Part shown: positions 2,318 to 49,053 of the stretch, one piece after another
Position numbering within the stretch: position 1 is the first letter of the stretch
Layout of the letters: each line of letters opens with the position of its first letter
Origin: Deltaproteobacteria bacterium
GTDB taxonomy: Bacteria > Myxococcota_A > UBA9160 > UBA4427
Length of the DNA: 64,000 nt
Direction: 5' to 3'
Assembly: GCA_019310975.1 (NCBI GenBank)
Contig: JAFDDH010000002.1
Coordinates: 33,569-97,568 of the forward strand
Notes under the pieces: generated by a model
The model's input: the letters and a program-made list of their open reading frames with translations, nothing else
The model's database searches: none
What the model was told of the DNA's origin: nothing
Translations under genes and position numbers: made by a program

Positions 2318-2345
2318 GGTGCTCCCAGGATGGAAATGACGTCCC

Positions 2346-3974
2346 TCAGCGCAGCATCCCGCGGCCGGCCTTCCACGAGCCCGTCGTACCGAAGAGCATC
2401 CCCGCCCACTCGGGGAGACGCGGCACCCTGGGCAGGAGAGCCAGCGTATAGCGTTCGTGCGGCTGCAGCCCGGCGCGTGTGGCGAGGTCGCGCAACGCCT
2501 CGAGCGGACCTCCGAGAGCGTCCACGAGCCCCAGCGCCTGGGCGCGGCGTCCGCTCCAGATGCGACCCTGGGCGATCTTTTCGACGTCCTCGCGGCTCTT
2601 CGAGCGGCCCTTGGCGACGCGATCGAGGAATGTGCCATAGATGGCCTGCATCTCGCGCCGCACAGCCGCGCGCTCATCGGAATTGAAGCCACGCGCCTCG
2701 GAGAGCATGCCGGCGCGCGCGCCCTGCTGAACACCCTCCTTCGAGATACCGAGCCGCTCGTACACACCCGCCAGGTTGATCTTGCCGCCGACGACGCCGA
2801 TCGAGCCGGTCACCGTGCCCGACTCTGCGAAGACCTGATCGGCTGCCGCCGCAATGTAGTAGCCACCCGACGCCACGACCTCGCCCATCGAAACCACCAC
2901 CGGCTTCTCGCGCCCAAGCTGCTCGACACGTCGGTGAATCAGATCCGAAGCCAGCGCGTCGCCCCCGCCGCTGTCGATGCGCAGTGCCACACCGCGCACT
3001 CGCGGATCCTCGCGTAGAGCGGCGAGCAATCCGCCCATGCCGCCCGAGGTGATACCGCGAAAGCCCTCTCCACTGCGCACGCCGCCCTCGGCCAAGAGGT
3101 AGACGAGCGCGGGCCGATCCCGGAAGATCGGCACGAAGCCGGGATCCATTACATGGGCCAAGAAGTAGTCGACGGCGGGGAGCAGGTGGACACGCCGCGG
3201 GCCGCGCGCGCCAGGCCGTGGCGCCCTTGCAAGGGGCTCGAGGCGCTTCTCGATCTCGTCGGCATACACGAGTGCGTCGACGAGTCCCGTCTCCACAGCG
3301 GCAGCCGCCGAGTAGGGACCGGTATCGATCAGATCTCGCACGGTCGACGGCTCCAGCGAGCGACCGAGCGCGATACCCGTGACGAGGTCTTCCCACACGT
3401 CGGCCTGCCAGCTCTCGACCTGCTCGCGCTCCTCGTCGGACATCGAGTCGCGTGTAAAGGTCTCGCCCGCGCTCTTGAACTTGCCCACGTGGACGACTTC
3501 GGGCTTGGCGCCGATGCGGTCCAATACGTCGCGCAGGTAGTAGCGCTCGGTGCGCAGGCCGACGAGGAAGAGGTTGCCGCTCTCTGGCATCCAGATGCGA
3601 TCGGCCGCCGTGGCAACGAGATAGGGGAAGGCCGCCATGCTCTCGGCGAAGACCGCCACGCGCTTTCCCTTCGCCCTCAACTCACCGAGTGCCCGGCGCA
3701 AGGAGAGCGCGTGCGAGAAGCGGCCGATATTGCCGCGCAGACGCAGGAGCACGCCATCCACGCGATGATCGTCCCCCGCGGCCTCGATGCAGCGCAGGGT
3801 GTCGAGCAGCCCCAGGGTCGACGGGCGCCCGAAGCCGATATGGCTGCGCTCCGCCAAATCACCTTCGATGTCGAGCACGATCCAATTGCCCGAATCCGCC
3901 GCAAACACGCGGCCCAACGCCACGCGACGCACCACGCGCGTCCCATTCGCGAAGGTCCTTCGCAGGGCGCCCAA
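2346..3974 (-). CDS. sppA: Signal peptide peptidase SppA (S49 family, two-domain type)
   Basis: 542 aa with two ClpP/crotonase-like S49 halves. The second half has VVSMGEVVASGGYYIAAAADQVFAE, the Ser nucleophile region. Its start lies 2 nt after the stop of the upstream vWA gene. Confidence 0.8.
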   Translation of the reverse strand: MGALRRTFANGTRVVRRVALGRVFAADSGNWIVLDIEGDLAERSHIGFGRPSTLGLLDTLRCIEAAGDDHRVDGVLLRLRGNIGRFSHALSLRRALGELRAKGKRVAVFAESMAAFPYLVATAADRIWMPESGNLFLVGLRTERYYLRDVLDRIGAKPEVVHVGKFKSAGETFTRDSMSDEEREQVESWQADVWEDLVTGIALGRSLEPSTVRDLIDTGPYSAAAAVETGLVDALVYADEIEKRLEPLARAPRPGARGPRRVHLLPAVDYFLAHVMDPGFVPIFRDRPALVYLLAEGGVRSGEGFRGITSGGMGGLLAALREDPRVRGVALRIDSGGGDALASDLIHRRVEQLGREKPVVVSMGEVVASGGYYIAAAADQVFAESGTVTGSIGVVGGKINLAGVYERLGISKEGVQQGARAGMLSEARGFNSDERAAVRREMQAIYGTFLDRVAKGRSKSREDVEKIAQGRIWSGRRAQALGLVDALGGPLEALRDLATRAGLQPHERYTLALLPRVPRLPEWAGMLFGTTGSWKAGRGMLR

Positions 3975-9423: not shown

Positions 9424-10506
9424 ATGCGAGTGATCAGCATCGTCAACCAGAAGGGGGGTTGTGGAAAGACAACCACCACGGTCAATCTCGCCGGTGCGCT
9501 CGCGCGAGACGGCGCGAGCGTGCTCGTGGTCGACATGGATCCCCAAGCCCACGCGACCCTTGCACTGGGTATCGATCCGGACGAACTCTCGGAGAATCTC
9601 TACGAGGTCCTGGCCGAGCCCGGTGGCACCGACCAGCTCTCTCGCATCCTCATCAACGTAGCGGAGCGAATCGATCTCGCGCCGTCGAGCATCGTGCTCT
9701 CTGCGCTGGAGCAGAAGCTGGCCGCTGAGCGGCACAACGCCCGGACCGAGCGCCTGGCCTCGGCGCTCGACGCGATGCCTACGCGCTACGACTTCGTCGT
9801 GATCGACTGTCCGCCTGCAGTCAGCCTGCTCACCTTCAATGCGCTCCGCGCTTCCAGTGAGGTGATCATCCCGCTCGAGACGAGCTTCTTCGCCATCGAT
9901 GGTGTGCAGAAGCTGCTCGAGACCATCGCGTTGCTGACGGATCGCATCGGACACGACCTGACGGTACGCGTGCTACCCACGCTCTACGATGGCCGCACCC
10001 GCTACGCACGGCAGACCCTGGGCGACATCCGCGAGCTCTTCAAGGATCTCTGCTTCGACTCGGTGATCCGCATGAACGTCAAGCTCCGCGAGGCCGCGAG
10101 ACACGGCAAGACCATCGATCGCTACGCCGCATCGGCCAACGGCGCTCTGGACTACGCGTCCGTCGCCATGGAGCTCGCCGCTAGCCCACCGGACTTCCGA
10201 CAGGCCGACGCGGCCGATGACACGCAATCGCCCGAACCGCTCGAGGTCGTGGTCCGCTTCCGCGATGAGGCGGCGGGGGACGTGCGCATCGCCGGCGATT
10301 TCAATGGCTGGGTACCCGACAAAGGCGTGCGCTCCAGCATCGAGGCGGAAGGGCCTGCGAGGGTGTGGACGAAGGTGTTGACGCTCTCGCCCGGCACCTA
10401 TCAATACCGATACATCGTGGACGGCGAGTGGCGGGTGGATCCCGAGAACCCAGAGTCCACGCCGGGTCCGATGGGCCAGCCCAACTCCGTCCTCCACGTG
10501 AGCTAG
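9424..10506 (+). CDS. ParA/Soj-family ATPase fused to a C-terminal CBM48 (AMPK-beta-type glycogen-binding) domain
   Basis: 360 aa. The N-terminus MRVISIVNQKGGCGKTTTTVNLAGALA has the deviant Walker A KGGxGKT. It continues through VVDMDPQ and DFVVIDCPP (Walker B). The C-terminal ~90 aa read VVVRFRDEAAGDVRIAGDFNGWVPDK...WTKVLTLSPGTYQYRYIVDGEWRVDPENP...NSVLHV, matching the AMPK1_CBM/CBM48 pattern. An AAGGGGGGA RBS precedes the ATG. Confidence 0.85.
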   Translation: MRVISIVNQKGGCGKTTTTVNLAGALARDGASVLVVDMDPQAHATLALGIDPDELSENLYEVLAEPGGTDQLSRILINVAERIDLAPSSIVLSALEQKLAAERHNARTERLASALDAMPTRYDFVVIDCPPAVSLLTFNALRASSEVIIPLETSFFAIDGVQKLLETIALLTDRIGHDLTVRVLPTLYDGRTRYARQTLGDIRELFKDLCFDSVIRMNVKLREAARHGKTIDRYAASANGALDYASVAMELAASPPDFRQADAADDTQSPEPLEVVVRFRDEAAGDVRIAGDFNGWVPDKGVRSSIEAEGPARVWTKVLTLSPGTYQYRYIVDGEWRVDPENPESTPGPMGQPNSVLHVS

Positions 10507-10516
10507 GATCTCGGCA

Positions 10517-11410
10517 TTGCCGCGCGATCTATCGGAAGTGCTGCACTACTTCATGCCCGAGCTGGGGCACGAGGAGGGCTCTCCGGCCATGCTGGGACCT
10601 GCTGCGCCCGCGCGCACAGAGGATGTCCGGCCCGGGCTTCCCAGAGAGAGCCCAATGCGCGTGCGCCCGACCTCCGGCCGCGCGACCCAGGAGGCGCGCC
10701 GCACGGCGCGCAAGAATCTCTCCTTGCTGCCGATCGTGACGATGCCGATCGGGGACGGCGACGTCGTGCGAGCGGCCTTCGCCTGGAATCTGGCCGTGGA
10801 GGTGGCGCGTCTGGGCGGCCGCGCGGTGCTGATCACGCCCGACCGAGATGATCCCTCACCGCTCTGGCCCGAGGCGGGCATCGGACCGCTCGGCGCGGAG
10901 CTGATGCCCGCCCCGGCACGCGACCTGACCTCCCTCTACCGCACCGCCGTCGACACAGCGGTCTCGCGTGCCGACGGCGCCACCGACGGCGGCTTGGTCC
11001 TCGTACACGTACCACCCGAGTGGCTGCACAATCCGGGGAGCGGCAGTCCCCTGCTGCGCTGGACGCTGCTCTTCACCACGTCGCACGCGCAGGATCTGAG
11101 AGAGACATACGCGATCGCGAAGCTCGTGCTGGGCTCGAATCCCCAGGCGCAGGTCGGTATTACGATCCACGGCGCGCGCGGGCGCGCCGAGGCGGAAGCT
11201 GCCTTTTCACGTCTCGCCCAAGCGGCGCAGAGATGTCTATCGCGCGACCTGCTGAGCTATGGGCTGCTGGTGGATGATCTCCACGTCTATCGGGCCATCG
11301 TCGCGCAGCGCCCGATTGGTCTCGAACACCCACAATCGCCCGCCGCGCGGGCTCTTCGCGACGTCGCCCAGATGCTCTTGGACGACGCGCGGAAGCACAC
11401 CCTTGCCTGA
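10517..11410 (+). CDS. MinD/ParA/FlhG-like protein with a degenerate Walker A (predicted pseudo-ATPase)
   Basis: 297 aa. The segment LLPIVTMPIGDGDVVRAAFAWNLAVEVARLGGRAVLITPD aligns by eye to the MinD pattern (IAVxSGKGGVGKTTxxxNLAxxLAxxGxxVLLIDAD), but GKGGVGKT is replaced by IGDGDVVR. It keeps a Walker-B-like LVLVHVPPE and a C-terminal MinD/FlhG-like LLSYGLLVDDLHVYRAIVAQRPIGLEHPQSPAARAL. Confidence 0.55.
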   Translation: MPRDLSEVLHYFMPELGHEEGSPAMLGPAAPARTEDVRPGLPRESPMRVRPTSGRATQEARRTARKNLSLLPIVTMPIGDGDVVRAAFAWNLAVEVARLGGRAVLITPDRDDPSPLWPEAGIGPLGAELMPAPARDLTSLYRTAVDTAVSRADGATDGGLVLVHVPPEWLHNPGSGSPLLRWTLLFTTSHAQDLRETYAIAKLVLGSNPQAQVGITIHGARGRAEAEAAFSRLAQAAQRCLSRDLLSYGLLVDDLHVYRAIVAQRPIGLEHPQSPAARALRDVAQMLLDDARKHTLA

Positions 11411-16710: not shown

Positions 16711-16723
16711 GGACCGCTCAGGG
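16705..16723. terminator. Shared stem-loop between convergent genes (CCCTGAG-gaccg-CTCAGGG)
   Basis: A 7-bp perfect stem with a 5-nt loop. It spans the tatA stop (16708-16710) and the stop of the convergent zinc-ribbon gene (16718-16720). There is no U tract. Confidence 0.3.
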
Positions 16724-18322
16724 GCCCCAGGTCAGCTCACTCGGCAGAGACGCGGGAGCCGCCGCGTCCGGAGCGGCACCCGGTGATGGCGCAGGTGCCT
16801 CCGTGGGCGCGGCGGGTGCATGGGGCGCGGCGGGTGCATGGGGCGCGGCGGGTGCAAGGGGCGCGGCGGGTGCAGTGGGCAAGCTCGGCGCTCCTCCCTG
16901 CATCTCCCGGGCCGGCCTCTCCAGGGCTGCGGGGGCCAGCGATGAATCGGCGGGCACGCCGAGATCGCCGACTATCGAGGGCTCCGGGATCGGTCGGTTC
17001 TCCCGGGCGATGCGGAGGGTCACGCGGGTGGCCTCGGCGGGAACGTCGCGAAAGATCGCCTGAAAGGGCGTACCGCGGCCCTGCTCGATGGTCCGGTTCG
17101 CGAGCGACCAGGCCGCGCGATCCTGAGCCATGCGCAGCACATCGGGCTCGGCCTCGCGCAGATCCGTTTCGCTGACGAGAACACCTGCCGGCTGTGCGTG
17201 GACGTCGACCGGTCGGCCGTCGTGACGAAGCAGCGCGACTTCGACGATGCCCACCGCGACAACGGGGCGTGCCTCGCGACTGCGAAGCTCGCCCACCACT
17301 GCGAGCAGCGTCTCGCCGCGCGACGTGTCGACCCACTGTCCGCGAACGTTCTCCGCTTGGAGCGGTCCGACCTCCAGGGTCTGGGGTGTGCTGACGAGGG
17401 ACTCGGCGATCCCCCAGAATCCGCTCACGAGAGCGAGACCCACGAGCGCGATCGTGGCCGCCCAGCCCGCACCCTGCCCGGCCCACGCAAGCCCGCGTGT
17501 CATGACGCTGGGTGCCGCAGCCTCGCCGTCGTAGTCGTCGTCCTCTTCGGCCTCCCAGGCCTCGGTCAACGCACCGATGCCATGGGTCGAATCACCGAGT
17601 GAGCCGCCCGGAGCGAGCTCGACCGAACCAATCGCGGCGCTCGCCTGGCCGCCGTCGAGTGAGCTCGTGGCAGCGGGAGCGGCGCTCGCATCGCCGAAGA
17701 AATCCCAGTTCTCGGGCTCGCCGAGGTCTTCGCTGCGCCCCTGCTCGGCATATTGCCCGGCGTTGGCCAGATTCGGCTGTGCGGGGTGGACGCTCGACTG
17801 CTCGTCATCGGCCGCTTCCTGGCTACCGGTGTCCAGATCGCTCGCCCGTGTCTGGTCGTCTTCCTCCATCAAGGAGGAAAAATCGTCGACGGAGCCGAAC
17901 GCGGACTCCTCGTCTTCTTCTTCCACAACCGGATCGTCCGGGTCGTTCTTTGCCTCTTCCTCGCCCTCGAGCGCCAGACCCGACGCGCCGTTCTGACTGA
18001 GCCCGCCGAAGGCGCCCTGCCCCTCGTCCTGACTCTCCTTGGCCTCGCTCGGATCGACGTTGAACTCCCAATCGTGCTCATCCTCGTCGCCCTGCACCTG
18101 CGCTCCGGGCGGCAGATCCTGCGTCATATCCGGCGGCCTCGTCCCACCCGACTGCGCGGCCTCACTCGCCACGGCGTCCACCGCGTCGGACGGGCTGGCC
18201 GATGGGTGCTGGAGGAAGAACGCCTCTTTGCAACGCGAGCAGCGCACACGGATGCCCTGATTGGGCACGCGGGCATCGTCGAGTTGGAAGCTGGTATCAC
18301 AGTTCGTGCAGGTGACGATCAA
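16718..18322 (-). CDS. MJ0042-type zinc-ribbon protein with acidic linker, one TM helix and a DUF3426-like C-terminal domain
   Basis: 534 aa. The N-terminus MIVTCTNCDTSFQLDDARVPNQGIRVRCSRCKEAFFLQ carries CxxC...CxxC. A long Asp/Glu-rich region follows, then the TM segment GWAATIALVGLALVSGFWGI. The C-terminus contains (PAAPHA)n-type repeats. Confidence 0.7.
   Translation of the reverse strand: MIVTCTNCDTSFQLDDARVPNQGIRVRCSRCKEAFFLQHPSASPSDAVDAVASEAAQSGGTRPPDMTQDLPPGAQVQGDEDEHDWEFNVDPSEAKESQDEGQGAFGGLSQNGASGLALEGEEEAKNDPDDPVVEEEDEESAFGSVDDFSSLMEEDDQTRASDLDTGSQEAADDEQSSVHPAQPNLANAGQYAEQGRSEDLGEPENWDFFGDASAAPAATSSLDGGQASAAIGSVELAPGGSLGDSTHGIGALTEAWEAEEDDDYDGEAAAPSVMTRGLAWAGQGAGWAATIALVGLALVSGFWGIAESLVSTPQTLEVGPLQAENVRGQWVDTSRGETLLAVVGELRSREARPVVAVGIVEVALLRHDGRPVDVHAQPAGVLVSETDLREAEPDVLRMAQDRAAWSLANRTIEQGRGTPFQAIFRDVPAEATRVTLRIARENRPIPEPSIVGDLGVPADSSLAPAALERPAREMQGGAPSLPTAPAAPLAPAAPHAPAAPHAPAAPTEAPAPSPGAAPDAAAPASLPSELTWGP
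16805..16880. repeat. 18-bp x4.2 tandem repeat (GGGCGCGGCGGGTGCATG)
   Basis: Units at 16805, 16823, 16841 and 16859. The first two are identical and the last two differ at 1-2 nt. On the minus strand they encode APAAPLAPAAPHAPAAPHAPAAP near the C-terminus of the zinc-ribbon protein. Confidence 0.9.
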
Positions 18323-18513
18323 GTCATCGACCTCATCGGTGCCGCATCCGAGTCACTCCCTTGTGCTAGGGTCGACGCTCGATCCACGACGGTCTAATCG
18401 GTGTTTCGGATGGGCCGACGCGGTGCTTGAGCCTCGAGGGTGCCGCCTGGCGAGGTGGGTGATACGGACCGCGCCCGTCGGCCACGAGGCCATCATCCGG
18501 TGTCTGTTCCGAT

Positions 18514-18609
18514 GCCGTTTCCCGTGTCCCTTCCCATGTCCCTTCCCGTGTCCCTTCCCATGTCCTTTCCCATGTCCTTTCCCATGTCCTTTCCCATGTC
18601 CTTTCCCAT
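18514..18609. repeat. 12-bp x8 tandem repeat (GTCCYTTCCCRT), pyrimidine-rich
   Basis: Read directly as gccgtttcccgt gtcccttcccat gtcccttcccgt gtcccttcccat, then (gtcctttcccat)x4. It ends at the ATG at 18608. In the ArsA frame it reads MPFPVSLPMSLPVSLPMSFPMSFPMSFPMSFPM. Confidence 0.95.
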
Positions 18610-19624
18610 GACAACGGAAATCGACCTCTCCCTCCTCAGTCGACGCATCATCATCGTGAGTGGCAAGGGGGGCACCGGAAAGACCACGGTCAGCACGGCG
18701 CTCGGGCTGGCTGCGGCCGCGCACGGCCGCCGCACGCTGATCGTCGAGGTGGGCCCGACCGAGCACGTCACCCCGCTGCTCGATCCCGGCGGCCCGGCCG
18801 CCGGATACGCCGGGCGCGAGCTGCGACCCGGGCTCCACGTCCTGCGGATCGATCCCTTCCTGGCCGTCTCCGAGTACATCGGACTCCAGCTTGGCAGTCG
18901 GGGTCCTGTCGACCTCGTGCTGCGCAACCGTGCCCTGCGGCAGCTGCTCGACGGCGCGCCGGGCTGGCGGGAGCTCATCACGCTGGGCAAGATCTGGTAC
19001 CTCGAGCAGAGCCTGTCTCCCTCCGGGGCCCCGCTCTTTGACCTGATCGTCGTGGACGCGCCCGCCACCGGACACGGTGTGAGCTTTCTGGATGTGCCGC
19101 GCGTCGTGCAGTCGGCGGTGCGAGCCGGCCCGCTGGCCCGAAACGCCGGGCTCGTCGAGCGGTTGGTGCGCGATCCCGACAAGACGCTGCTGCTCCCGGT
19201 CTGCCTGGCCGAGGATCTCCCGGCGCGCGAGACCGGTGAGCTGATCGAGCGGATGCGCGACCGGGTGGGCATTGCGGTGGACCGCGTGGTGATCAACGCA
19301 CTCCCGGCACGGCCACTGCCCGATGACTTGTCCGATATCGGTGAGCGGCTGGCGGAGCTGCCGCCGACGCTCGATCTCTGCGTCCTGCCCGAGCCGCCGG
19401 TGCTCACGGCCTGTGCGTCGTACCTCACCTCGCGCCACGCGCTGGCCGAGCACTACGTCGGCGTCGTCGCAGAGCTCACGGGTCTACCCCTCGTCGGGCT
19501 GCCCTTTGTGATGGGCGGCCTGCGGCAACCGGGCGCGCTGGATCGCATCAGCGAGGCGCTGCTCACTCAGCCGCAATCGCCCGACGAAGCCGAGCCAGCG
19601 GCGAACGATCGGGTACACCGATGA
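18608..19624 (+). CDS. ArsA/Get3-family ATPase (first of a pair)
   Basis: In ORF 18440..19624. From MTTEIDLSLLSRRIIIVSGKGGTGKTTVSTALG (deviant Walker A), through DLIVVDAPATGHGVSFL (the ArsA-type DxPPTGH-like switch). The start is ambiguous: six in-frame ATGs plus GTGs lie in or just upstream of the repeat, and the longest ORF begins at GTG 18440. Confidence 0.8.
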   Translation: MTTEIDLSLLSRRIIIVSGKGGTGKTTVSTALGLAAAAHGRRTLIVEVGPTEHVTPLLDPGGPAAGYAGRELRPGLHVLRIDPFLAVSEYIGLQLGSRGPVDLVLRNRALRQLLDGAPGWRELITLGKIWYLEQSLSPSGAPLFDLIVVDAPATGHGVSFLDVPRVVQSAVRAGPLARNAGLVERLVRDPDKTLLLPVCLAEDLPARETGELIERMRDRVGIAVDRVVINALPARPLPDDLSDIGERLAELPPTLDLCVLPEPPVLTACASYLTSRHALAEHYVGVVAELTGLPLVGLPFVMGGLRQPGALDRISEALLTQPQSPDEAEPAANDRVHR

Positions 19625-20868
19625 CGCGGGACGCGGCCTGGGATGCGCTGGTTGGGGATGCGCGCATCGTCGTGTGCGTGGGCACAGGGGGTGTCGGCAA
19701 GACGACTCTGGCCGCCTCAATCGCACTCGAGGCGGCACGGCGCGGCCAGCGTGCCCTCGTGCTCACGATCGACCCGGCGCGGCGGCTGGCTGATGCGCTG
19801 GGGATCGGCGAGCTCGGCAATCAGCCACGCGAGCTGCCGCCCGAGCTCCACAGACGCCTGGGTCTGCCCGACGGCGCGCACCTCTTCGCCGTGATGCTCG
19901 ACATGAAGCGCACCTTCGATGATCTCGTCGAGCGTCTCGCCGCGAGTGAAGAAGCGCGCCAACGCATCCTCGCCAATCCGATCTACCAGCAGCTCTCCGA
20001 CGCGCTGGCGGGCAGCGGCGAGTACGCGGCGATGGAGAAGGTCTACGAGCTGCTCGAGAGCCAGCGCTACGACCTGGTGGTGCTCGACACCCCGCCCTCT
20101 CAACACGCGCTGGACTTTCTCGATGCGCCGCGCAAGCTGCTCGAATTCATCGACAGCCGCGTCGTCAAGTTGCTCGTACACCCTGCCCTCTCGGCAGGCC
20201 GCTTCGGGTTTCGGCTCTTTCAAGGTGCGACCCAGCGCGCCCTGAAGCTGATCGAGCGGCTGTCGGGCATTGGCTTCCTCGAGGACATCTCCGAGTTCCT
20301 GCTGGCGTTCGAGGATATGTCAGCCGGCTTTCGCGACCGGGCCACCCGCGTGCAGTCCATGCTGCTGGGACCGGAGGCGCGTTTCGTGCTGGTCGCGGCA
20401 CCCTCGCCCGAGGCAGCACGCAACGCGGAACTCTTCCTGACGCGGCTCGAAGCCACGCGCGTCCCGATCTCCGGAATCGCGATCAACCGCACGCGGCTGT
20501 GGCCGGGAGGTGGCGCTCCCGCGCAGGGTCTGCGCTGCGACGATGCGACGATCTCCGAGGCGCTGGAGACCGACCTGGTGCGATTGGCCGAAGCACTCGA
20601 CCCCGATGCGCAGCCGCCGGTCGAGGGTCGGCATGCCGCACTTGCGGCGCTGGCCGTCGCGAGGCAGTACGCTGGTCTCGTGCAGCTGGATCGCGACAGC
20701 ACCTCGGGGCTTCGCGCCCGTGCCCGACGTCTCGGCGTGGCGGTGCGCGACGTCCCGGAGCTCGCGTGCGAGGTGCACGACCTCGACGGACTCTCGCTGG
20801 TCGCCGTGCATCTCTTCGGGTCGGACGCGCCGGACGAGAGATCGGCCCCCCACCGGCAGGAGGTGTAG
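19621..20868 (+). CDS. ArsA/Get3-family ATPase (second of a pair)
   Basis: 415 aa. RIVVCVGTGGVGKTTLAASIALEAARRGQRALVLTIDPARRLADALG, then DLVVLDTPPSQHALDFL. Its start overlaps the upstream stop as ATGA. Confidence 0.85.
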   Translation: MTRDAAWDALVGDARIVVCVGTGGVGKTTLAASIALEAARRGQRALVLTIDPARRLADALGIGELGNQPRELPPELHRRLGLPDGAHLFAVMLDMKRTFDDLVERLAASEEARQRILANPIYQQLSDALAGSGEYAAMEKVYELLESQRYDLVVLDTPPSQHALDFLDAPRKLLEFIDSRVVKLLVHPALSAGRFGFRLFQGATQRALKLIERLSGIGFLEDISEFLLAFEDMSAGFRDRATRVQSMLLGPEARFVLVAAPSPEAARNAELFLTRLEATRVPISGIAINRTRLWPGGGAPAQGLRCDDATISEALETDLVRLAEALDPDAQPPVEGRHAALAALAVARQYAGLVQLDRDSTSGLRARARRLGVAVRDVPELACEVHDLDGLSLVAVHLFGSDAPDERSAPHRQEV

Positions 20869-20871
20869 GGC

Positions 20872-21468
20872 GTGACGGCGCGACGAACCTCCGCTCGAGG
20901 TGCTGAGGCGAACCCTCCCCGATCCGTCGAGGAGGCATTGGCACACGCGACCGGCCACGCCCGCAACGCAGTCTCCGAGTCGCTGCTGGCGGCCCGGTCG
21001 CTGATCGACGCCCTATCGCTCGCGCTTTCCGGCCAGCCCGTGGACGCAAGTGTCAGCACCCACTCCGGCCCACACGCTGCGCTGGTGTCGCTCGCGCAGG
21101 CAATCGATCGGTTGGCCGAGCGCGCACGCGGGACCGATACCTCCCTGCCCAGATCCGTCGCCGAGGCGCTCATCGATGCGCTCGAGTCCGAGATCGGGCG
21201 CTGGGAGCAGCGCTCGACGAGTGACGCGGACGCCCGCGCCGTCCTGCGCGCCTTCCTGGGCTTGCGCGAGATCCTGTGGGAGCTCGGCGTGCGCCCATCC
21301 AACGGGGCGGATGACGAAACGATACAGGACGAGGATGACTCCGGGGAACCCACGGCCCACTCCGAGACGGATCGACGAATCGATGAACCGCGCCCACCAC
21401 GGCCGCACAAGCGGCGCGGAAAGCCCCCGAAGCGTCCTCGCGTGCAGCGCATCCAGGTGGATGGCTGA
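20872..21468 (+). CDS. Hypothetical protein with a helical N-terminal part and a basic C-terminal tail
   Basis: 198 aa. GTG start 9 nt after GGAGG (20858-20862) and 4 nt after the ArsA stop. Third-position GC bias is consistent with coding. The tail reads PRPPRPHKRRGKPPKRPRVQRIQVDG. I recognise no motif. Confidence 0.45.
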   Translation: MTARRTSARGAEANPPRSVEEALAHATGHARNAVSESLLAARSLIDALSLALSGQPVDASVSTHSGPHAALVSLAQAIDRLAERARGTDTSLPRSVAEALIDALESEIGRWEQRSTSDADARAVLRAFLGLREILWELGVRPSNGADDETIQDEDDSGEPTAHSETDRRIDEPRPPRPHKRRGKPPKRPRVQRIQVDG

Positions 21469-21525
21469 GCCCGAGTCCGGCCGGGCGGGCCTGTGCTAGC
21501 GTCCCTCAACTCAAGCGAGCCCCCG

Positions 21526-22143
21526 ATGGCCATCCTCATCAAGCGCTACGCGAATCGCAAGCTCTACAACACTGACACCAGCCGGTACATCACGCTCAAG
21601 GGCATCGCCGAGCTGTTGGATGGCGGTGATGAGGTGCGCGTAATCGACAACGAGACGGGCGAGGACATCACCTCGGTCGCCCTCTCTCAGATCCTCGTCG
21701 ACAGCAAACGCACCAACACATCCCCGCCCGACAACCTTCTCTCGCAGATCTTCGTCCGCGGCGGCGACGTGCTCTACGAGGCGCTTAAGCGTGGCGTGGA
21801 CGACGCGTCGGATAATATCGGCGAGTTCCAGGACCGCATGCGCCGAATGATGAAGGGCGAGGAGCGGGTCGGCGATCGTGGGGATGGCGAGTCGAACGAG
21901 CCGCGACATGGCCTCGGCGAGTGGCTCGAGAAGGCGTCACCGGATCTGGAGCACCTGGTGCAGCGTGCCGTAGAGCGTGTATTCCGAATGCTCGACCTGC
22001 CGCGCCGCACCGACGTCGAGACGCTGAACCGCAATCTCGAGCGTGTAGCCTCCGCGGTGGAAACCCTCGAGAAGGCCTTCGCAGAGCGCGAGTCGGAACG
22101 CGGTGAGCGCCGTGAGCGCGAAGAGGCGCATCCGCCCAGCTGA
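21526..22143 (+). CDS. PhaR-type PHA synthesis regulator N-domain fused to a phasin-like C-terminal segment
   Basis: In ORF 21493..22143. MAILIKRYANRKLYNTDTSRYITLKGIAELLDGGDEVRVIDNETGEDITSVALSQIL is the PHB/PHA accumulation regulator DNA-binding domain. The C-terminal LDLPRRTDVETLNRNLERVASAVETLEK resembles phasin / PHA-granule-associated proteins. Confidence 0.75.
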   Translation: MAILIKRYANRKLYNTDTSRYITLKGIAELLDGGDEVRVIDNETGEDITSVALSQILVDSKRTNTSPPDNLLSQIFVRGGDVLYEALKRGVDDASDNIGEFQDRMRRMMKGEERVGDRGDGESNEPRHGLGEWLEKASPDLEHLVQRAVERVFRMLDLPRRTDVETLNRNLERVASAVETLEKAFAERESERGERREREEAHPPS

Positions 22144-22313
22144 GCGGCTCTTGACCCCAGCGCGGGCGCCTCCGATTGCTTCTACACCGCTGGCGGCTCT
22201 GACATGAAGCCGGCCAGCCGAGCCGCCAGCGTGCTCTGGTAGACTCGGGCGCCCATCTCGCTGTCGCGCATGGAGGCCGGCATTCGTTCCCACAATCTGC
22301 AAGGAGACAGACC

Positions 22314-23111
22314 ATGTCCGTCGTGCTCGTCGAGAAGAACGGCCACATCCTCACCGTCACGCTGAACCGACCCGAGAAGAAGAACGCGGTGAATTCCGAG
22401 GTGATGTGTCGCCTCTTCGACGCCTGGAACCAGCTGGATGCAGACGACGAGCTGCGCGTCGCCATTCTCACCGGCAAGGGTGACACCTTCTGCGCAGGCA
22501 TGGACCTGTCTGAGATCCCCAAGCTCAGCTCCGGCAAGCCCGAGAACGAGTACATGGAGCGGGTCCTGAAGGAGCCTGCCGTGATCTACGGCGCCTGGCT
22601 CAAGACCTACCGTCCCACCAAGCCGGTCATCCTCGCAGCCGAGGGCTTCGCACGGGCGGGCGGCACCGAGATCCTACAGGGCACGGACATTCGGGTGGCC
22701 GGCGAGAGCGCCATGTTCGGCGTAACCGAGGTGCAGCGAGGCCTCTTCCCGATGGCCGGCTCCGCGGTGCGCCTGCGCCGCCAGATCGGCTACGCGGTGG
22801 CGGCCGAGATGTTGTTGGCCGGCGAGGACCTGCCGGCGCGGCGCGCCTACGAGCTCGGATTGATCAATCATGTCGTGCCGGATGGTCAAGCCGTCGCCAA
22901 GGCGCACGAGATCGCCGACCGCATCGCGTCCAACGGACCGCTCGCAGTGAAGGCCATCCTGGCGACACTGCGCGAGACCGAGACGCTGCCCGAGGAGGAT
23001 GCGTTCGCAATCGAGCAGCAGCACGGGATGAAAGTAATGACTTCGAAGGACGCGATCGAGGGCCCACGTGCCTTCCTCGAGAAGCGCAAGCCGAGCTTCA
23101 TCGGCGAGTAG
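22314..23111 (+). CDS. Enoyl-CoA hydratase/isomerase (crotonase) family protein
   Basis: 265 aa. ILTVTLNRPEKKNAV, oxyanion-hole GKGDTFCAGMDL, and GFARAGGTEILQGTDIRVA. Confidence 0.85.
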   Translation: MSVVLVEKNGHILTVTLNRPEKKNAVNSEVMCRLFDAWNQLDADDELRVAILTGKGDTFCAGMDLSEIPKLSSGKPENEYMERVLKEPAVIYGAWLKTYRPTKPVILAAEGFARAGGTEILQGTDIRVAGESAMFGVTEVQRGLFPMAGSAVRLRRQIGYAVAAEMLLAGEDLPARRAYELGLINHVVPDGQAVAKAHEIADRIASNGPLAVKAILATLRETETLPEEDAFAIEQQHGMKVMTSKDAIEGPRAFLEKRKPSFIGE

Positions 23112-32929: not shown

Positions 32930-33889
32930 GTGAGCAACCAATTCCACCACCAACCCGTCCTCCTCACCGAAAGTATCGAGCAACTGGATCTATCGGCGGG
33001 CGATGTCGTTGTGGATGGAACGCTCGGGGGCGGCGGGCATGCTGCAGCAATCCTGGAGTGCATTGCGCCCGATGGCGTGCTGGTCGGCCTCGACGTCGAC
33101 GCCGAGGCTCTTGCGGCGGCCCATGAACGGCTCCAGCCCTTTGGTGAGCGAGCCCAGCTGGTGCATGCATCCTTTCGGCGCCTGGATCACGTGATTCGCT
33201 CGCTGGGTCTCGCCAGTGTCGATGCCGTGCTCCTCGACCTCGGCGTTTCGTCGCATCAGCTCGACGTCTCGGGGCGCGGCTTCCGCTTTGCCGAGATGAG
33301 CCGCGACGAAACGCCGCTGGACATGCGGATGGACACGACACGCGGAAGGACAGCGGCCGAGCTGCTCCGCCACGCGTCCGAAGAGGAGCTACAGGGCTTC
33401 TTCCAGCGATACGGCGAGCTGCCCGGCAGCAGGCGCCTCGCGCGGGCCATCGCGGCGGAGCGAGAGCGGGAGCCGTTGCGTACCGCTGCGGATCTGTTGC
33501 GCGTAATCGACTCGGCGCGCATCGGCCGCGGTCGACGTCACAACCCGGCGACCCTCGTTTTCCAGGCCCTGCGCATCGCGGTGAACGACGAGCTCGGCGC
33601 GCTCGAGGACGGCCTTGACGCGGCGGTCGAGGTATTGCGGCCCGGCGGGCGGCTGGTGGTCATCGCGTACCACTCGCTCGAGGACCGCATCGTCAAGCAC
33701 CGATTCCGAGCCGAGGCGAAGGGCTGCATCTGCCCACCCGCGCAGCCGGTCTGCACCTGCGGCCGGAAACCGCGACTGCGCGTCGACACGCGACGGCCGA
33801 TCCGGCCCAGTGAGGAAGAGGTCGGAGCCAACCCTCGCTCGCGGTCGGCGCTGCTGCGCGCTGCCGAGCGCATCGCGGAGGCGATCTGA
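32930..33889 (+). CDS. rsmH: 16S rRNA (cytosine1402-N4)-methyltransferase RsmH
   Basis: 319 aa with a GTG start. HQPVLLTE, DGTLGGGGH, LLDLGVSSHQLD, and LVVIAYHSLEDRIVK. Confidence 0.9.
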   Translation: MSNQFHHQPVLLTESIEQLDLSAGDVVVDGTLGGGGHAAAILECIAPDGVLVGLDVDAEALAAAHERLQPFGERAQLVHASFRRLDHVIRSLGLASVDAVLLDLGVSSHQLDVSGRGFRFAEMSRDETPLDMRMDTTRGRTAAELLRHASEEELQGFFQRYGELPGSRRLARAIAAEREREPLRTAADLLRVIDSARIGRGRRHNPATLVFQALRIAVNDELGALEDGLDAAVEVLRPGGRLVVIAYHSLEDRIVKHRFRAEAKGCICPPAQPVCTCGRKPRLRVDTRRPIRPSEEEVGANPRSRSALLRAAERIAEAI

Positions 33890-34407
33890 TGGCACGGCGT
33901 TCGCAGCCGCGCCTACGCGGCCGAATGGCACACCTGCTCGGTCTGGCCGAGGAATCCCCGAAGCGTCGCGGCCGGGGCCGCGGCAAGGCAGGGCGGAAGA
34001 GCCAGCGAAATCAACCAAGCGGTCTCAGCCTCGGCATCATCGGCATCGACGTCGGTCACACCCGCGTACGGCTCTCGGTGCAGCGGCTGCTGCTCGTGCT
34101 GGCCCTGACACTGCTGGTGGCACTCGGCGTTGCCTCATTGCGCATCGAGATGATCCGCCTCCGCTATGCGCTCGCCGAAACCAGCCTGGAGGAGGAGCGC
34201 CTGCTCGAGGAGCAGCGCAGTCTTACCGCCGAAAAGCTGCGCCTCCGCGATCCCGTCCACCTTGCCGGCCGTGCGCGCGAGCTGGGCTTCGTGCGGCCGG
34301 AGCGCCTGATCGACCTGCCCGCTGTGGCGCTGGGCCCGGACCAACGAGCTAGGACTGTGCTCGCATCGGTCGGTGCCGAGACACCGGCTTCGCTGGGCCG
34401 ACCATGA
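33889..34407 (+). CDS. ftsL: Cell division protein FtsL (with a long basic N-terminal tail)
   Basis: 172 aa. Called by position between rsmH and ftsI. It has a single TM helix (LLLVLALTLLVALGVASL) followed by a coiled coil (EEERLLEEQRSLTAEKLRL) and RELGFVRPE. The start overlaps the rsmH stop (TGATG). Confidence 0.7.
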   Translation: MARRSQPRLRGRMAHLLGLAEESPKRRGRGRGKAGRKSQRNQPSGLSLGIIGIDVGHTRVRLSVQRLLLVLALTLLVALGVASLRIEMIRLRYALAETSLEEERLLEEQRSLTAEKLRLRDPVHLAGRARELGFVRPERLIDLPAVALGPDQRARTVLASVGAETPASLGRP

Positions 34408-36554
34408 GATCGCAGGCGCTCCGCTCGGCGGCCGTCCGCGCGCGTGCGCTACGCCTCGTATTCATTCTCGCCTTCATGGTGCTGGCGAGCCGAGCGGGCT
34501 ATCTCGCCGTTGGCCAGCCACGCGCCGCCGATCGGGGTGGCAAGCAAACCGAAACCGAGATCACACTTCGCGGCGCGCGCGGCCTGATCCTCGATCGCAG
34601 CGGGCGCGAGCTCGCGATCAGCGTCGACGCGCCCTCCGTCTTCGTCTTTCCACGATTGCTCGAGAATCGTCAGCGCGCTATAGCGGACCTCGCACGCGCA
34701 CTGGGCGTATCGCGGCGCGAGTTGGAAGAGCGCATCGGATCGCGCACGCGCTTCACCTACCTGGCGCGCTGGCTCGAGGACGATCGTGCGCAGGCCGTCG
34801 AAGCGCTCGGGCTGCCCGGCGTCGGCGTCGAGCGCGAGGCACGCCGCACCTACCCGGCCGGCGGGATGGCGGCCCAGCTCGTGGGCTTCGCGGACATCGA
34901 CGGCAAGGGCGTGCGTGGCATCGAGCAGATGTACGACGAGTGGCTGCGTGGATCGGTGCGCAAGCTGCCGCTGAAACGGGATGCCCGCGGCGTCCTGCTC
35001 TCGAGCCACGCCTTCGATTCACGCGAGAACGCGGGCGGCGATATCATGCTCAGCCTGCACGCAGGCCTACAGGCGCAGGCCGAGGCCGCGCTGGCCGAGG
35101 CCGTGACCTCCACGAAGGCCAAGGGCGGCGTGGTGATCGCAGTGGATCCTCGCAACGGCGACATCCTCTCTCTGGCCGAGGCCCCCGGCTTCGACCCGAA
35201 CGACTTCCGCCACACCCCCTACGCGCAGACGCGCAGCCGCGCATTCATGGATGCGCTTGAGCCCGGCTCGACGATGAAGGCCTTCCTGGTGGCCGCCGCA
35301 CTCGAGAACGGCGTCATTTCCGTAACCACTGCCTTCGACACGGGCGAGGGCTGGATTCGTGTGCCCGGCAGGACGATCCGCGATCACCACCCCTACGGCG
35401 TGATCAATGCGGCCGGCGTATTGCGCTACTCAAGCAACATCGGCGCCGTGCTCATCGCCGGCGAGCTCGGACCCGAGCGCCACCATGCGGCTCTAGGCGG
35501 CTTCGGCTTCGGCCACGCGACACGCAGCGGCTTCCCGACCGAGTCGGCCGGACTATTGCGAGACTGGCCGGACTGGAAGGGTATCGACCACGCCACCGTC
35601 GCATTCGGTCAGGGCATGAACGTCACGCCGATTCAGCTCGCGATGGCGACGGCGGCGCTGGCAAACGGTGGACTGCGCATGCAGCCCAGGCTCGTCCTGG
35701 CGCGACGCCGCCCGATGAGCGGGTGGGAGGATGTCAAGCCCGTCGGGGTCGGTCAGGCCGTCAGTCCTGCCGTGGCGGCGCACACACTCTCCATGCTCGA
35801 GACCGTCGTCAGCGGCGAGGGCACCGGCCGTCGGGCCGCCCTGGCCGGAGTCCGCGTTGCGGGTAAGACCGGCACCGCGCAGATATTCGACACCGAGACC
35901 GGGCACTACTCGCAGACTCGCTACACCGCCTGGTTCCTCGGAATCGCGCCGGCCGACGATCCGCGCATCGCAATCGTGGTCGCCCTGCACGAGCCGCAGG
36001 GCCCGAGCCACACGGGCGGGGGCACGGCGGCACCTCTCTTCGCTCGCGTCGCCGCCGATCAGCTCGCCCGCCATGGAATCACGACAGAACCGGAACCGAT
36101 CGCGGCCAATCCCAATCCAAGATGGAAGGTGGCCATGAAAGAGAGAGAGGAGCAGAGAAGGAGCATCGCCGCGGGGCCCTCTGCGCCGGGAGCAGCCGAG
36201 GCCGCCCGCGCGCTCACCATCGCTTCTGGACCGACTCCGGAATCGCGGGCACCCGCCGCCGATCGCATCCCCGTTCCCTCGCCGGCGGCGGGCGCCCGCA
36301 AAGCCATCCCACACGTCTCGACCTCGCCTCCCGCGACGATCGAAGCCGGGCGGGGCAGCGTCTTCGTGCCCGACTTCCATGGCGAAAGCCTCACTTCGGC
36401 CAAGGAAATCGCGGCCGGTGCGTCACTGGAGCTGCAGGTCAGCGGCCTGGCGAGGGGCCGAGTGGTCCGCCAAAGCCCGATCGCCGGTACCATCGTCGAT
36501 GGAAAGCAGCGCACTGTGGTCCTCCGTTTCTCGACCGAGCGAGAGGAGGGATAG
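34404..36554 (+). CDS. ftsI: Penicillin-binding protein 3 (FtsI) with a C-terminal PASTA domain
   Basis: 716 aa. Transpeptidase motifs: PGSTMK (SxxK), SSN, and KTGT. The C-terminal ~60 aa read VFVPDFHGESLTSAKEIAAGASLELQVSGLARGRVVRQSPIAGTIVDGKQRTVVLRFS, a PASTA pattern. Confidence 0.9.
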   Translation: MRSQALRSAAVRARALRLVFILAFMVLASRAGYLAVGQPRAADRGGKQTETEITLRGARGLILDRSGRELAISVDAPSVFVFPRLLENRQRAIADLARALGVSRRELEERIGSRTRFTYLARWLEDDRAQAVEALGLPGVGVEREARRTYPAGGMAAQLVGFADIDGKGVRGIEQMYDEWLRGSVRKLPLKRDARGVLLSSHAFDSRENAGGDIMLSLHAGLQAQAEAALAEAVTSTKAKGGVVIAVDPRNGDILSLAEAPGFDPNDFRHTPYAQTRSRAFMDALEPGSTMKAFLVAAALENGVISVTTAFDTGEGWIRVPGRTIRDHHPYGVINAAGVLRYSSNIGAVLIAGELGPERHHAALGGFGFGHATRSGFPTESAGLLRDWPDWKGIDHATVAFGQGMNVTPIQLAMATAALANGGLRMQPRLVLARRRPMSGWEDVKPVGVGQAVSPAVAAHTLSMLETVVSGEGTGRRAALAGVRVAGKTGTAQIFDTETGHYSQTRYTAWFLGIAPADDPRIAIVVALHEPQGPSHTGGGTAAPLFARVAADQLARHGITTEPEPIAANPNPRWKVAMKEREEQRRSIAAGPSAPGAAEAARALTIASGPTPESRAPAADRIPVPSPAAGARKAIPHVSTSPPATIEAGRGSVFVPDFHGESLTSAKEIAAGASLELQVSGLARGRVVRQSPIAGTIVDGKQRTVVLRFSTEREEG

Positions 36555-38120
36555 ATGCGCCTCTCTTCACTCCTCGCAGCCCTGCCGAAGCACCTCGCCC
36601 CGACCGCCTGGGTGCGCGAGGATGCCAGCATCGACCCGGTGATCCGGGGCATTTCGTACGACTCTCGGAGGGTCGCGCCCGGCGACCTCTTCGTCGCCCT
36701 CTCGGGCAGCGTGAGCGATGGACACGACTACGTGGCGCGCGCCATCGAGCTCGGCGCTGTGGCCGTCATGCTCGAACACGCGGTCGACACTCACGTCCTG
36801 GCCGGCCGGCCGGCGGTCGTCGTGCCGAAGAGCCGGCGCGCGCTCGCGCCCATCTCGATTCGTTTCTTCGGGGAGCCCTCGAGCAAGCTGCGCCTCATCG
36901 GCATTACGGGCACGAACGGCAAGACGAGCACCACCTACCTCGTCGAATCGATCCTCTCGTCGGCGAATGTGCGCACCGGCCTGATCGGCACCGTGGAGAT
37001 ACGCTACGCGAGCGAGCGCATCCCCGCGGTCAACACGACGCCGGAAAGCCTCGATCTGCAGCGTACCCTGCGCTCGATGTGCACACAGAACATCGAGGCG
37101 GTGGTAATGGAGGTGTCGTCCCACGGCCTCGAGCTCGGCCGCGTGAGCGGCTGCCGCTTTCGCGTCGGTGCCTTCACGAACCTCACGCAGGATCACCTGG
37201 ACTTTCACGGCGACATGGAATCGTACCTCGGCTCCAAGGCCCTGCTTTTCCGCGAATGCATGGTGCCCGGAGGCCACGCGGTCGTAAACGTGGATGACCC
37301 GGCGGCGGACAAGATCATCGCGGCGGCCGAGGAAGGCCGCTGCGAGGTGATCCGGTGCTCACGCGACGCCGACACCCCGGCCGACGTGAAGCTCGTGGAC
37401 GCGGTCATCTCACTCTCGGGTACGCGCGCGTCGCTCGAGCTGCCCACGGGTCGGATCGAGCTGGATGTACCGCTGCTCGGCGACTTCAATCTCGAGAACC
37501 TGGTGGTGGCGTGCGCATCCGCGTACGCGCTGGGCGTTGGGCCCGAAGCCATCGCAGCGGGCGTCGCGGCCTGCCGGCAGGTGCCCGGCCGCATGGAGGT
37601 GGTGCGCGGCGCTGGCTCAGGCGCCCCCACTGTGATCGTCGACTACGCGCACACACCCGACGCCGTCGACAAGCTGCTGCGCGCCGTGCGCCAGCTATCC
37701 GAGGCCCGACTGATCGCTGTCTTCGGCTGTGGGGGCGACCGCGATCGGAGCAAGCGTCCTCTCATGGCTGAGGCAATTGCGCGCCACAGCGACATCGCAA
37801 TCGCGACCAGCGACAACCCACGCACCGAGGACCCGGATCGAATCCTCGCAGACGTCGAGGAGGGCCTGAAGAACATGCGGCGCACCACACCCGACGCGCT
37901 CGGCGCGGGGAAGGGCTCTTATACGGTGATGCGCGATCGGCGCGAAGCGATCCGTACGGCCATCGCTCTGGCGCGTCCCGGCGACAGCGTCGTGATTGCC
38001 GGCAAGGGGCACGAGGACTACCAGATCATCGGCCGCGACAAGCTGCCCTTCGATGACCGTATAGAGGCGCGCAAGGCGTTGGCTGAGCGGCAAGCCCCCG
38101 TGCAGGGGAGTGAGACATGA
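36555..38120 (+). CDS. murE: UDP-N-acetylmuramoyl-L-alanyl-D-glutamate--2,6-diaminopimelate ligase
   Basis: 521 aa. ITGTNGKTST, and the DNPR motif (TSDNPRTEDP) that indicates meso-DAP specificity. Confidence 0.95.
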   Translation: MRLSSLLAALPKHLAPTAWVREDASIDPVIRGISYDSRRVAPGDLFVALSGSVSDGHDYVARAIELGAVAVMLEHAVDTHVLAGRPAVVVPKSRRALAPISIRFFGEPSSKLRLIGITGTNGKTSTTYLVESILSSANVRTGLIGTVEIRYASERIPAVNTTPESLDLQRTLRSMCTQNIEAVVMEVSSHGLELGRVSGCRFRVGAFTNLTQDHLDFHGDMESYLGSKALLFRECMVPGGHAVVNVDDPAADKIIAAAEEGRCEVIRCSRDADTPADVKLVDAVISLSGTRASLELPTGRIELDVPLLGDFNLENLVVACASAYALGVGPEAIAAGVAACRQVPGRMEVVRGAGSGAPTVIVDYAHTPDAVDKLLRAVRQLSEARLIAVFGCGGDRDRSKRPLMAEAIARHSDIAIATSDNPRTEDPDRILADVEEGLKNMRRTTPDALGAGKGSYTVMRDRREAIRTAIALARPGDSVVIAGKGHEDYQIIGRDKLPFDDRIEARKALAERQAPVQGSET

Positions 38121-40593: not shown

Positions 40594-40602
40594 AGGGAAG
40601 GT

Positions 40603-47533: not shown

Positions 47534-47675
47534 CATGCCCGCCGGGCACGGCGTCGGCGTGCAGGGATGGACCCGCTCCGGGGGGGAGCGGGCTGAAAGC
47601 GGCGGCCTCGCGCGGATGCGCGGCGCCGTCCAGTCCGGGCTGGCCGAGGATTCGGCGGCCCATTGGGGGGAAGAA

Positions 47676-48914: not shown

Positions 48915-49053
48915 TTGCGGCGGGTCGGATCGAGAAACCACTGAAGTGGCGGTCGGTTTTTGTCCACGAGACGAAACGATCACGACAAAAACAACCGCAT
49001 TCTGTTACATTCGGCGCGCCTGAAGAGGGTCGCGCCTATTGGGGGGTGAGAGT

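Follow-up and report, generated by a model that had tools for sequence, protein, structure and literature searches.

A BagAB-type ATPase gene pair joined to a lineage-specific third gene and a PhaR-family gene in uncultured Myxococcota

Four co-directional genes and their junctions

The stretch of DNA analyzed here, 64,000 nucleotides of contig JAFDDH010000002.1 from a Deltaproteobacteria bacterium and referred to below as the window, contains at 18608-22143 four co-directional open reading frames (ORFs) on the + strand, with a GC content at third codon positions (GC3) of 0.79-0.83 in a window of ~67% GC. The first two encode ATPases that carry the Pfam domain ArsA_ATPase and whose nearest structures in the PDB are Rv3679, for the bagA-like gene (18608-19624, + strand, 338 amino acids), and Rv3680, for the bagB-like gene (19621-20868, + strand, 415 amino acids). 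They are followed by the gene for a 198-residue protein, P198 (20872-21468, + strand), in which a predicted lineage-specific four-helix bundle leads into a disordered linker and the C-terminal sequence RVQRIQVDG, and by a PhaR-family gene (21526-22143, + strand, 205 amino acids) whose product combines a PHB_acc_N domain with a long helix, a disordered linker and a conserved C-terminal coiled coil.

An earlier reading of the window from its letters alone (the original prediction) had proposed that the two ArsA-family ATPase genes are coupled by an ATGA overlap, and that the 198-codon ORF lies directly behind them with a GGAGG ribosome-binding site of its own. Both proposals hold. The reading frames 18608-19624 and 19621-20868 overlap in ATGA, and the same spacing of -4 nucleotides (nt) is found in ~61 of 68 relatives. 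The GTG start codon of P198 at 20872 lies 3 nt past the bagB TAG stop codon (20866-20868) and has GGAGG 8 nt upstream of it (20859-20863); in relatives the bagB-to-P198 spacing has a median of -4 nt, and such start/stop overlaps tie P198 to bagB beyond adjacency. The junctions show bagA, bagB and P198 as one predicted translationally coupled unit. For the step from P198 to the PhaR-like gene, the median spacing in relatives is +72 nt. All four ORFs of the original prediction exist on the + strand, but the start of the last one has to be moved from GTG 21493 to ATG 21526, which is the most likely start codon because all 73 relatives align from MAILIKRYANRKLYNT and because GTG 21493 sits within a conserved -10-like box described below.

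The reading frame of bagA is open from 18440, and its in-frame ATG codons are supplied by a 12-bp tandem repeat of TTCCCATGTCCT (18507-18610, + strand; 8.7 copies, score 152, 90% matches) that abuts or overlaps the bagA start. Each unit contains an in-frame ATG and would be read as (MSFP)n, and the gene call of the Joint Genome Institute (JGI) puts the repeat inside the protein. The repeat is not present in relatives, whose alignment begins only at residue 1-9 of the 338-residue form of BagA; the start at 18608 agrees with these relatives, although it is not certain. Contig L001, which is 99.7% identical, has the same number of repeat copies as the window. Near-identical genes (99.7%) are found on JGI contig Ga0366820_1051195 and also among NCBI proteins from metagenome-assembled genomes (MAGs) with JRH17/JRG92 locus tags.

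A BagAB-type ATPase pair with complementary motif losses

Both ATPases match Pfam ArsA_ATPase well above its gathering score of 24.3, with 78 and 80 bits. When compared with the PDB, the first ATPase is closest to 6bs3_A (Rv3679; E 3e-26, against 7e-11 for Rv3680), and the second to 6bs3_B (Rv3680; E 4e-67, against 9e-7 for Rv3679). The highest-scoring NCBIfam models are likewise those of BagA for the first protein (121 bits, equivalog cut-off 400) and of BagB for the second (333.5 bits over the full length, cut-off 521; models NF053622 / NF053621). Since these scores fall under the equivalog cut-offs, the two proteins are distant orthologues of BagA and BagB rather than members of these families in the NCBI sense. 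The likeness to the mycobacterial Rv3679-Rv3680 pair, which the original prediction had pointed out, was correct, since the top PDB and NCBIfam matches fall in the same gene order. BagA and BagB of M. tuberculosis (Rv3679/Rv3680) are also encoded by adjacent, translationally coupled genes, and identity between the window proteins and their actinobacterial counterparts is ~45% for BagB and 28-35% for BagA.

Other branches of the superfamily fit less well. The ArsA equivalog (TIGR04291) gave 40.3 and 46.7 bits, far under its cut-off of 650, and the Get3/ArsA subfamily model that represents Get3/TRC40 (TIGR00345) gave 73.2 and 76.8 bits, under a cut-off of 135. ParA/MinD models reached only 23-35 bits with either ATPase. 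The window proteins have the fold family, the P-loop and the switch motifs in common with Get3/TRC40, and may be alike in depending on partner proteins. However, Get3 forms homodimers, binds zinc at a CxxC site and has a groove rich in methionine, whereas no CxxC motif is present in the translation of either window ATPase. With ArsA the pair has in common the Pfam domain and the logic of two halves; ArsA, however, is a fused pseudo-dimer of ~580 residues, whereas the window ATPases are separate proteins of 338 and 415 residues with no ars operon among the window genes scanned.

The nucleotide-binding motifs of the two proteins differ in a regular manner. BagA has an intact Walker A motif of the deviant type, GKGGTGKT, in which the signature lysine is kept, but glycine stands at the position of the catalytic aspartate of the (S/T)TDPA motif (LIVEVGPTEHV, aligned to LLVSTDPASNV of ArsA); Rv3679 has glutamate at this position. 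In BagB, the Walker A motif GTGGVGKT lacks the signature lysine and the aspartate of TIDPARR is kept; the switch motifs of BagB read TIDPARRLADALG. Both patterns are conserved among relatives, and the asymmetry of the Walker A motifs, GKGGTGK in BagA and G(A/T)GGVGK in BagB, is common to the window and M. tuberculosis. In dimeric ATPases of the Get3/ArsA type, the signature lysine reaches into the site of the partner. Because the losses in BagA and BagB are complementary, we predict one competent composite ATP site, located on BagB.

P198, a compact protein family

P198 matched no model of NCBIfam or of the Pfam version searched, which does not contain PF27253. Its homologues number 541 in a large protein collection, where all are named 'hypothetical' and a few are pre-annotated as PF27253. 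When 1.84 billion cluster representatives were searched exhaustively with a profile, 260 clusters were returned, 237 of them at E < 1e-10, with proteins of 110-270 residues. By this search the P198 family is compact and has a sharp edge, with no detectable relatives beyond the 260 clusters. Weak Pfam similarities across 44 P198 relatives showed nothing recurrent, and no phasin family appeared among them at E up to 1. AlphaFold2 predicts helices at residues 19-53, 67-86, 94-115 and 119-137 with a confidence (pLDDT) of ~90, and a tail below 66; searched against the PDB with Foldseek, this model gave no fold match at E below 5, phasin structures included.

The alignment of the family contains 21 invariant columns. 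It opens with an N-terminal helix SVEEAL..HAR.A.AE and is most conserved in a core ALD.EI.RWE.RS..D.DARAVLRAFLGLREILWELG.R, after which a variable linker leads to a conserved extreme C-terminus, RVQR-x-x-V-x-G. One further helix of note reads ARAVLRAFLGLREILWELG, and the tail of the window protein reads ...RPHKRRGKPPKRPRVQRIQVDG. The codons of the C-terminal motif vary synonymously between genomes, which argues that conservation acts on the protein. The basic tail that the original prediction had pointed out is usual rather than universal: the linker, 15-76 residues long, is net positive in 35 of 43 relatives. Since its C-terminus is charged and has no hydrophobic anchor, P198 is not a tail-anchored protein and not a client of that kind. 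The charged motifs of P198 are sharply conserved, which would suit a specific contact with another protein better than a generic amphipathic coat.

The PhaR-family protein

The fourth protein matches PHB_acc_N with 85.6 bits (gathering score 25), and the domain is present in all 36 relatives compared. It occupies residues 1-62, which are near-invariant and modelled by AlphaFold2 at a pLDDT > 89. The C-terminal helix is conserved as well (ERVF..LDLPRRSD.E.LN.NL.RV). In the original prediction the protein joined a PhaR N-domain to a phasin-like helix. The first half of this description stands; for the second, the match to Phasin PF05597 scores ~21 bits (20.7-20.9), under the gathering score of 28.8, and covers only profile positions 75-125. 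Sub-threshold matches of the same kind recur in relatives, to PF05597 in 34 of 36 and to the BMFP (UbiK-like) coiled coil in 26 of 36. The window protein is thus like PhaR and the PhaF/PhaI phasins in its PHB_acc_N domain and in a C-terminal helix that resembles the end of the PF05597 profile, and its position after a small helical protein recalls phaP-phaR gene pairs. Canonical PhaR, however, has a PHB_acc domain (PF05233), which was found in 0 of 36 PhaR-like relatives, and the score of 69.4 bits with the PhaR equivalog TIGR01848 is under the cut-off of 109.45. The fourth protein is, by these profiles, a predicted PhaR-family DNA-binding protein with a coiled coil and not a demonstrable PhaR.

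The neighborhood was scanned for genes of the corresponding pathways. Pfam searches of ~35 of the ~44 window genes, with the dcw genes at 38117-48914 left out, detected no polyhydroxyalkanoate (PHA) synthase, ketothiolase or reductase, and no ArsB/ACR3, ArsC, ArsR or ArsD. Nor did ars genes turn up in the gene tables and downstream ORFs read in related loci. The statement of the original prediction that arsB, arsC, arsR and arsD are not nearby is borne out for the genes scanned, whereas its proposed link to PHA granules is not: PHA synthase is not among these genes, the PhaR-family protein falls short of PhaR in domain and score, and P198 is unlike phasins in sequence and fold. A literature search on a PhaR-ArsA link returned nothing relevant.

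Within the linker of the PhaR-like protein, ~66 nt of the window sequence (21728-21793) are missing from the near-identical JGI contig (L001 3523-3524), where the gene call is split into products of 73 + 101 residues; this difference reflects a deletion at strain level or else an error of assembly.

Conserved DNA motifs upstream of bagA and of the PhaR-like gene

Upstream of bagA, at 18362-18372 (+ strand), lies an extended -10-like box, TGTGCTAGGGT, and a second such box, TGTGCTAGCGT, is found at 21492-21502 (+ strand) in the spacer between P198 and the PhaR-like gene. The pattern TGTGCTAGNGT has two matches in the 64-kb window, and these are the two sites. The 11-nt box, TGTGCTAG(C/G)GT, has the form of an extended -10 element (TGnTAnnnT). 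A matrix of the box, trained on these very sites so that its specificity is somewhat circular, was run over 1.0 Mb of related loci and gave 76 matches scoring 14 bits or more, all on the coding strand; 65 of them precede bagA or the PhaR-like gene, and 5 occupy these same positions in loci whose gene calls are incomplete. In several relatives (L058, L062, L069) the hexamer ends 6-9 nt before the ATG of the PhaR-like gene. Such a spacing fits a leaderless or short-leader transcript, and we therefore predict that the box is a true promoter. The PhaR-like gene is seen to follow the coupled unit with a promoter-like box of its own, and the same putative element stands before bagA. A scan of 18200-22400 for consensus promoters and terminators found nothing.

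Between the -10-like box and bagA there is a second conserved element, the two-box motif GTTTCGG-N16-CTTGAG (18403-18431, + strand). It is present upstream of bagA in 44 relatives, with a spacing of always exactly 16 nt, and occurs once in the window, where 0.05 occurrences are expected. A structured RNA leader before bagA was considered and rejected, as no Rfam match and no consensus structure in 21 sequences were obtained. The strict 16-nt spacing argues for a DNA site rather than an RNA, and the motif is probably a putative protein-binding site or an alternative promoter.

The four-gene order is fixed within one lineage

Genomes were scanned with the P198 alignment, taking one genome per species. 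This returned 97 species, from which 80 genome loci were kept. All 97 are uncultured Myxococcota or 'Deltaproteobacteria' MAGs, apart from a few evident mislabels, and isolates UBA9160 and UBA4427 are among them. From these two isolates we infer that the lineage is probably the Myxococcota_A class UBA9160, which was named Vahlivitia in a 2026 preprint. Where the respective position could be tested, bagB is immediately upstream of P198 in 72 of 73 genome loci, bagA is upstream of bagB in 65 of 68, and the PhaR-like gene is immediately downstream of P198 in all 69; the four genes are adjacent in 55 of 57.

The reverse test used metagenome loci picked via bagB and counted where the room downstream sufficed. 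Loci of the same lineage had P198 after bagB in 17 of 17 cases and the PhaR-like gene in 15 of 15. By contrast, of 62 distant bagB loci (37-48% identity), 40 of which have at least 600 nt downstream, none of these 40 showed a match to P198 or to the PhaR-like protein after bagB. The genes found there instead are heterogeneous and mostly on the opposite strand (whiB, a class A penicillin-binding protein, a mechanosensitive-channel-like protein and others). Actinobacterial bagAB genes are two-gene units beside RidA/MBL genes and whiB/ponA, with no third or PhaR-like gene, and the bagAB loci of Tsukamurella and Nonomuraea have this mycobacterial arrangement, with neither P198 nor a PhaR-like gene.

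The set of four genes is fixed in a single uncultured lineage of Myxococcota, and the bagAB loci examined elsewhere do not have it. The conserved linkage that the original prediction implied exists inside this lineage and fails outside it, in the 40 metagenome loci and in the two actinobacterial genomes, and the P198/PhaR-like extension of bagAB is specific to one uncultured clade. One distant locus, L101, also has a co-directional third gene, which starts 30 nt past bagB, but it encodes a third Get3/ArsA-type ATPase (2221-3405, + strand) with an alpha-crystallin-like C-terminal domain and not a relative of P198, and no PhaR-like gene comes after it within the contig. The third gene attached to bagAB may differ from lineage to lineage.

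Discussion

We give a probability of about 0.5 to the view that the locus is a lineage-specific elaboration of BagAB, made up of the heterodimer, a co-translated third subunit, P198, and a PhaR-like regulator expressed from a matching promoter. In the mechanism that we propose, BagA and BagB would pair as a nucleotide-sandwich heterodimer in which only one ATP site is competent: judging from the motifs, BagA, which has lost the catalytic aspartate, would supply its signature lysine across the dimer interface to BagB, which has lost the lysine and keeps the aspartate. P198 would serve the ATPases as a dedicated third component, synthesized together with them, and either its helical bundle or the flexible tail ending in RVQRxxVxG may dock on the heterodimer. 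There it could act as an adaptor or regulator, or be a client, by analogy with Get4/5, Get1/2 or ArsD, which act on Get3 and ArsA. We know of no relatives of Get1/2/4/5 in bacteria. The PhaR-like protein would be a DNA-binding regulator made from the matching promoter, and it probably controls the operon or is co-expressed with it.

As for the cellular role, mycobacterial bagAB mutants have stress phenotypes, as described in part in one published source (PMC10597346). Together with the analogy to Get3-type holdases, this makes the handling of hydrophobic or stress-damaged proteins our default assumption. A lineage in which the ATPase pair is co-translated with a dedicated small protein would offer a candidate partner of BagAB, and the PhaR-family regulator with the two conserved upstream DNA motifs would give a route to the signal that switches the system on. 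The association with PhaR is a peculiarity of one uncultured clade and not a general trait of BagAB-type ATPases.

Several observations weigh against this view. The neighbors of the four genes, namely the dsbA-like gene (+ strand), PMM (- strand), tatA (+ strand) and the gene for a zinc-ribbon membrane protein (- strand), are kept in 34-48 of 50 loci; the five upstream genes hold their order in most loci of the lineage, and a 2-Mb contig of a relative holds the order of the window from a ParA-CBM gene to the dcw cluster. Because the surrounding gene order is conserved too, adjacency alone is weak evidence of shared function, and the PhaR-like gene could owe its place to inheritance and not to function. 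In locus L031, where bagAB is cleanly missing, P198, the PhaR-like gene and the leader of bagA are still present, and in loci L015 and L023 bagA is not adjacent; judging from these three loci, the link of P198 with the PhaR-like gene is at least as close as its link with the ATPases. The upstream elements leave similar room for doubt. The remaining 6 of the 76 box matches lie upstream of the dsbA-like gene. Three units of the conserved block may therefore have a kind of promoter in common, and the box may simply represent a strong promoter. The two-box motif, which is retained in L031 despite the loss of bagAB, was not found upstream of the PhaR-like gene.

Co-variation of the proteins was assessed with a mirror-tree test, in which protein distance matrices were compared and partial correlations calculated with PMM, and then with PMM and the dsbA-like protein, as controls. 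Controlling for PMM alone gave a partial r of 0.46-0.59 for the comparisons between BagA/BagB, P198 and the PhaR-like protein. The dsbA-like control gave the same, so these values are residual phylogeny. After both controls only the pair BagA-BagB, which served as positive control, was recovered (partial r 0.51, p 0.006). The comparison of P198 with BagA/BagB was not significant (only r 0.17-0.21, p 0.07-0.13), and that of P198 with the PhaR-like protein gave r 0.16.

In an alternative that we regard as less likely, bagA, bagB and P198 form one unit and the PhaR-like gene encodes an unrelated regulator in a region that rarely rearranges. This would account for the separate -10-like box and the 72-nt median spacer in front of the PhaR-like gene, for the flanking genes that are about as conserved as the four genes, for the long shared order on the 2-Mb contig, and for the dsbA-like control, which co-varies with BagA, BagB and P198 as strongly as these do among themselves. 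It explains the downstream edge less well. The genes for an enoyl-CoA hydratase and a TPR protein just past the PhaR-like gene are conserved in only 1 of 50 loci, so the block has a real border after the PhaR-like gene; with an adjacency of 69/69 on one side and 1/50 on the other, rearrangement does occur at this border. The same 11-nt box also stands before both units, and the PhaR-like gene stays with P198 after the loss of bagAB.

In a sharper form of the idea in the original prediction, the PhaR-like gene and P198 could instead be read together as a phaP-phaR-like pair of a storage-inclusion module, in which P198 would be a protein of the inclusion surface and the PhaR-like protein its repressor, with BagAB as an ATP-driven chaperone or targeting factor that loads P198, or other amphipathic proteins, onto PHA or lipid inclusions. 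phaP-phaR gene pairs occur in Paracoccus and Rhodobacter, and here too a helical protein of ~190 residues is encoded directly before a PhaR-family gene on the same strand. The two genes are adjacent in all testable loci and kept together where bagAB is lost, and the C-terminus of the PhaR-like protein has its sub-threshold PF05597 match in nearly all relatives. We nevertheless consider such a module unlikely. No PHA synthase, ketothiolase or reductase gene is among the window genes scanned; none of the 44 P198 family members matches a phasin family, nor does the P198 model match a solved phasin structure; the conserved charged motifs of P198 suggest specific contacts and not a generic coat; the PhaR-like protein has no PHB_acc domain and stays below the PhaR cut-off; and bagAB elsewhere has neither gene as a neighbor. 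A more elaborate form of the idea, to which we attach still less weight, would make BagAB, P198 and the PhaR-like protein a Get3-like system for delivery to, or positioning of, a hydrophobic inclusion surface (PHA or neutral lipid), where P198 would be the coat or adaptor handled by the ATPases and the PhaR-like protein an inclusion-sensing repressor that also ties the inclusion to DNA. Were this the case, bacterial BagAB-type ATPases would have their first defined client.

Cargo positioning of the ParA type, in which the ATPases would use the nucleoid as a track, P198 would be an adaptor with a basic tail and the PhaR-like protein would tether the cargo to DNA, appears very improbable. Basic disordered regions and a DNA-binding domain recall the partner proteins of ParA-like ATPases; P198 has the former, the adjoining gene encodes the latter, and BagA has the deviant Walker A lysine. 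Yet the two ATPases belong to the Get3/ArsA/BagAB branch and score poorly with ParA/MinD models, a heterodimer with one degenerate site is unlike positioning ATPases, and cargo genes are not found nearby. Finally, an arsenite-pump ATPase split into two genes, for which the ArsA_ATPase domain of both proteins would speak, can be set aside, and the original prediction had already called it unlikely, since the ArsA equivalog scores are 40 and 47 bits against 650, the top matches are BagA and BagB, the halves are separate genes, and arsB/ACR3, arsC, arsR and arsD appear neither among the window genes scanned nor in the tables and ORFs read for related loci.

Additional features of the region

The box matches before the dsbA-like gene are located at L009 1258, L020 1660, L030 1314, L062 1921, L063 1561 and L073 1119; the window has no such match at this place.

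Divergent from bagA, the window encodes a 534-residue protein (16718-18322, - strand) that begins with a zinc ribbon of the MJ0042 type, has a long disordered and acidic stretch and one predicted membrane helix, and is conserved in its C-terminal part; this divergent orientation is kept in 48 of 50 relatives. The dcw cluster (32930-50565, + strand; mraW, ftsI with a PASTA domain, murE to ftsZ) begins ~11 kb downstream of the four genes and is also near them in locus L084. The RNase P RNA of bacterial class A is found at 57052-57497 (+ strand, 229 bits).

Further upstream, at 9424-10506 (+ strand), a ParA/MinD-type ATPase (AAA_31, CbiA, MipZ) carries a fused glycogen-binding module, AMPK1_CBM, at its C-terminus, and is followed by an ORF of ~290 residues with no Pfam match (10517-11410, + strand). 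The pair recurs in related MAGs, at 472-1581 / 1705-2550 of locus L031 and at 1-342 of locus L084, where the CBM was called as a separate ORF. The ParA-CBM protein could be a positioning ATPase for glycogen granules.

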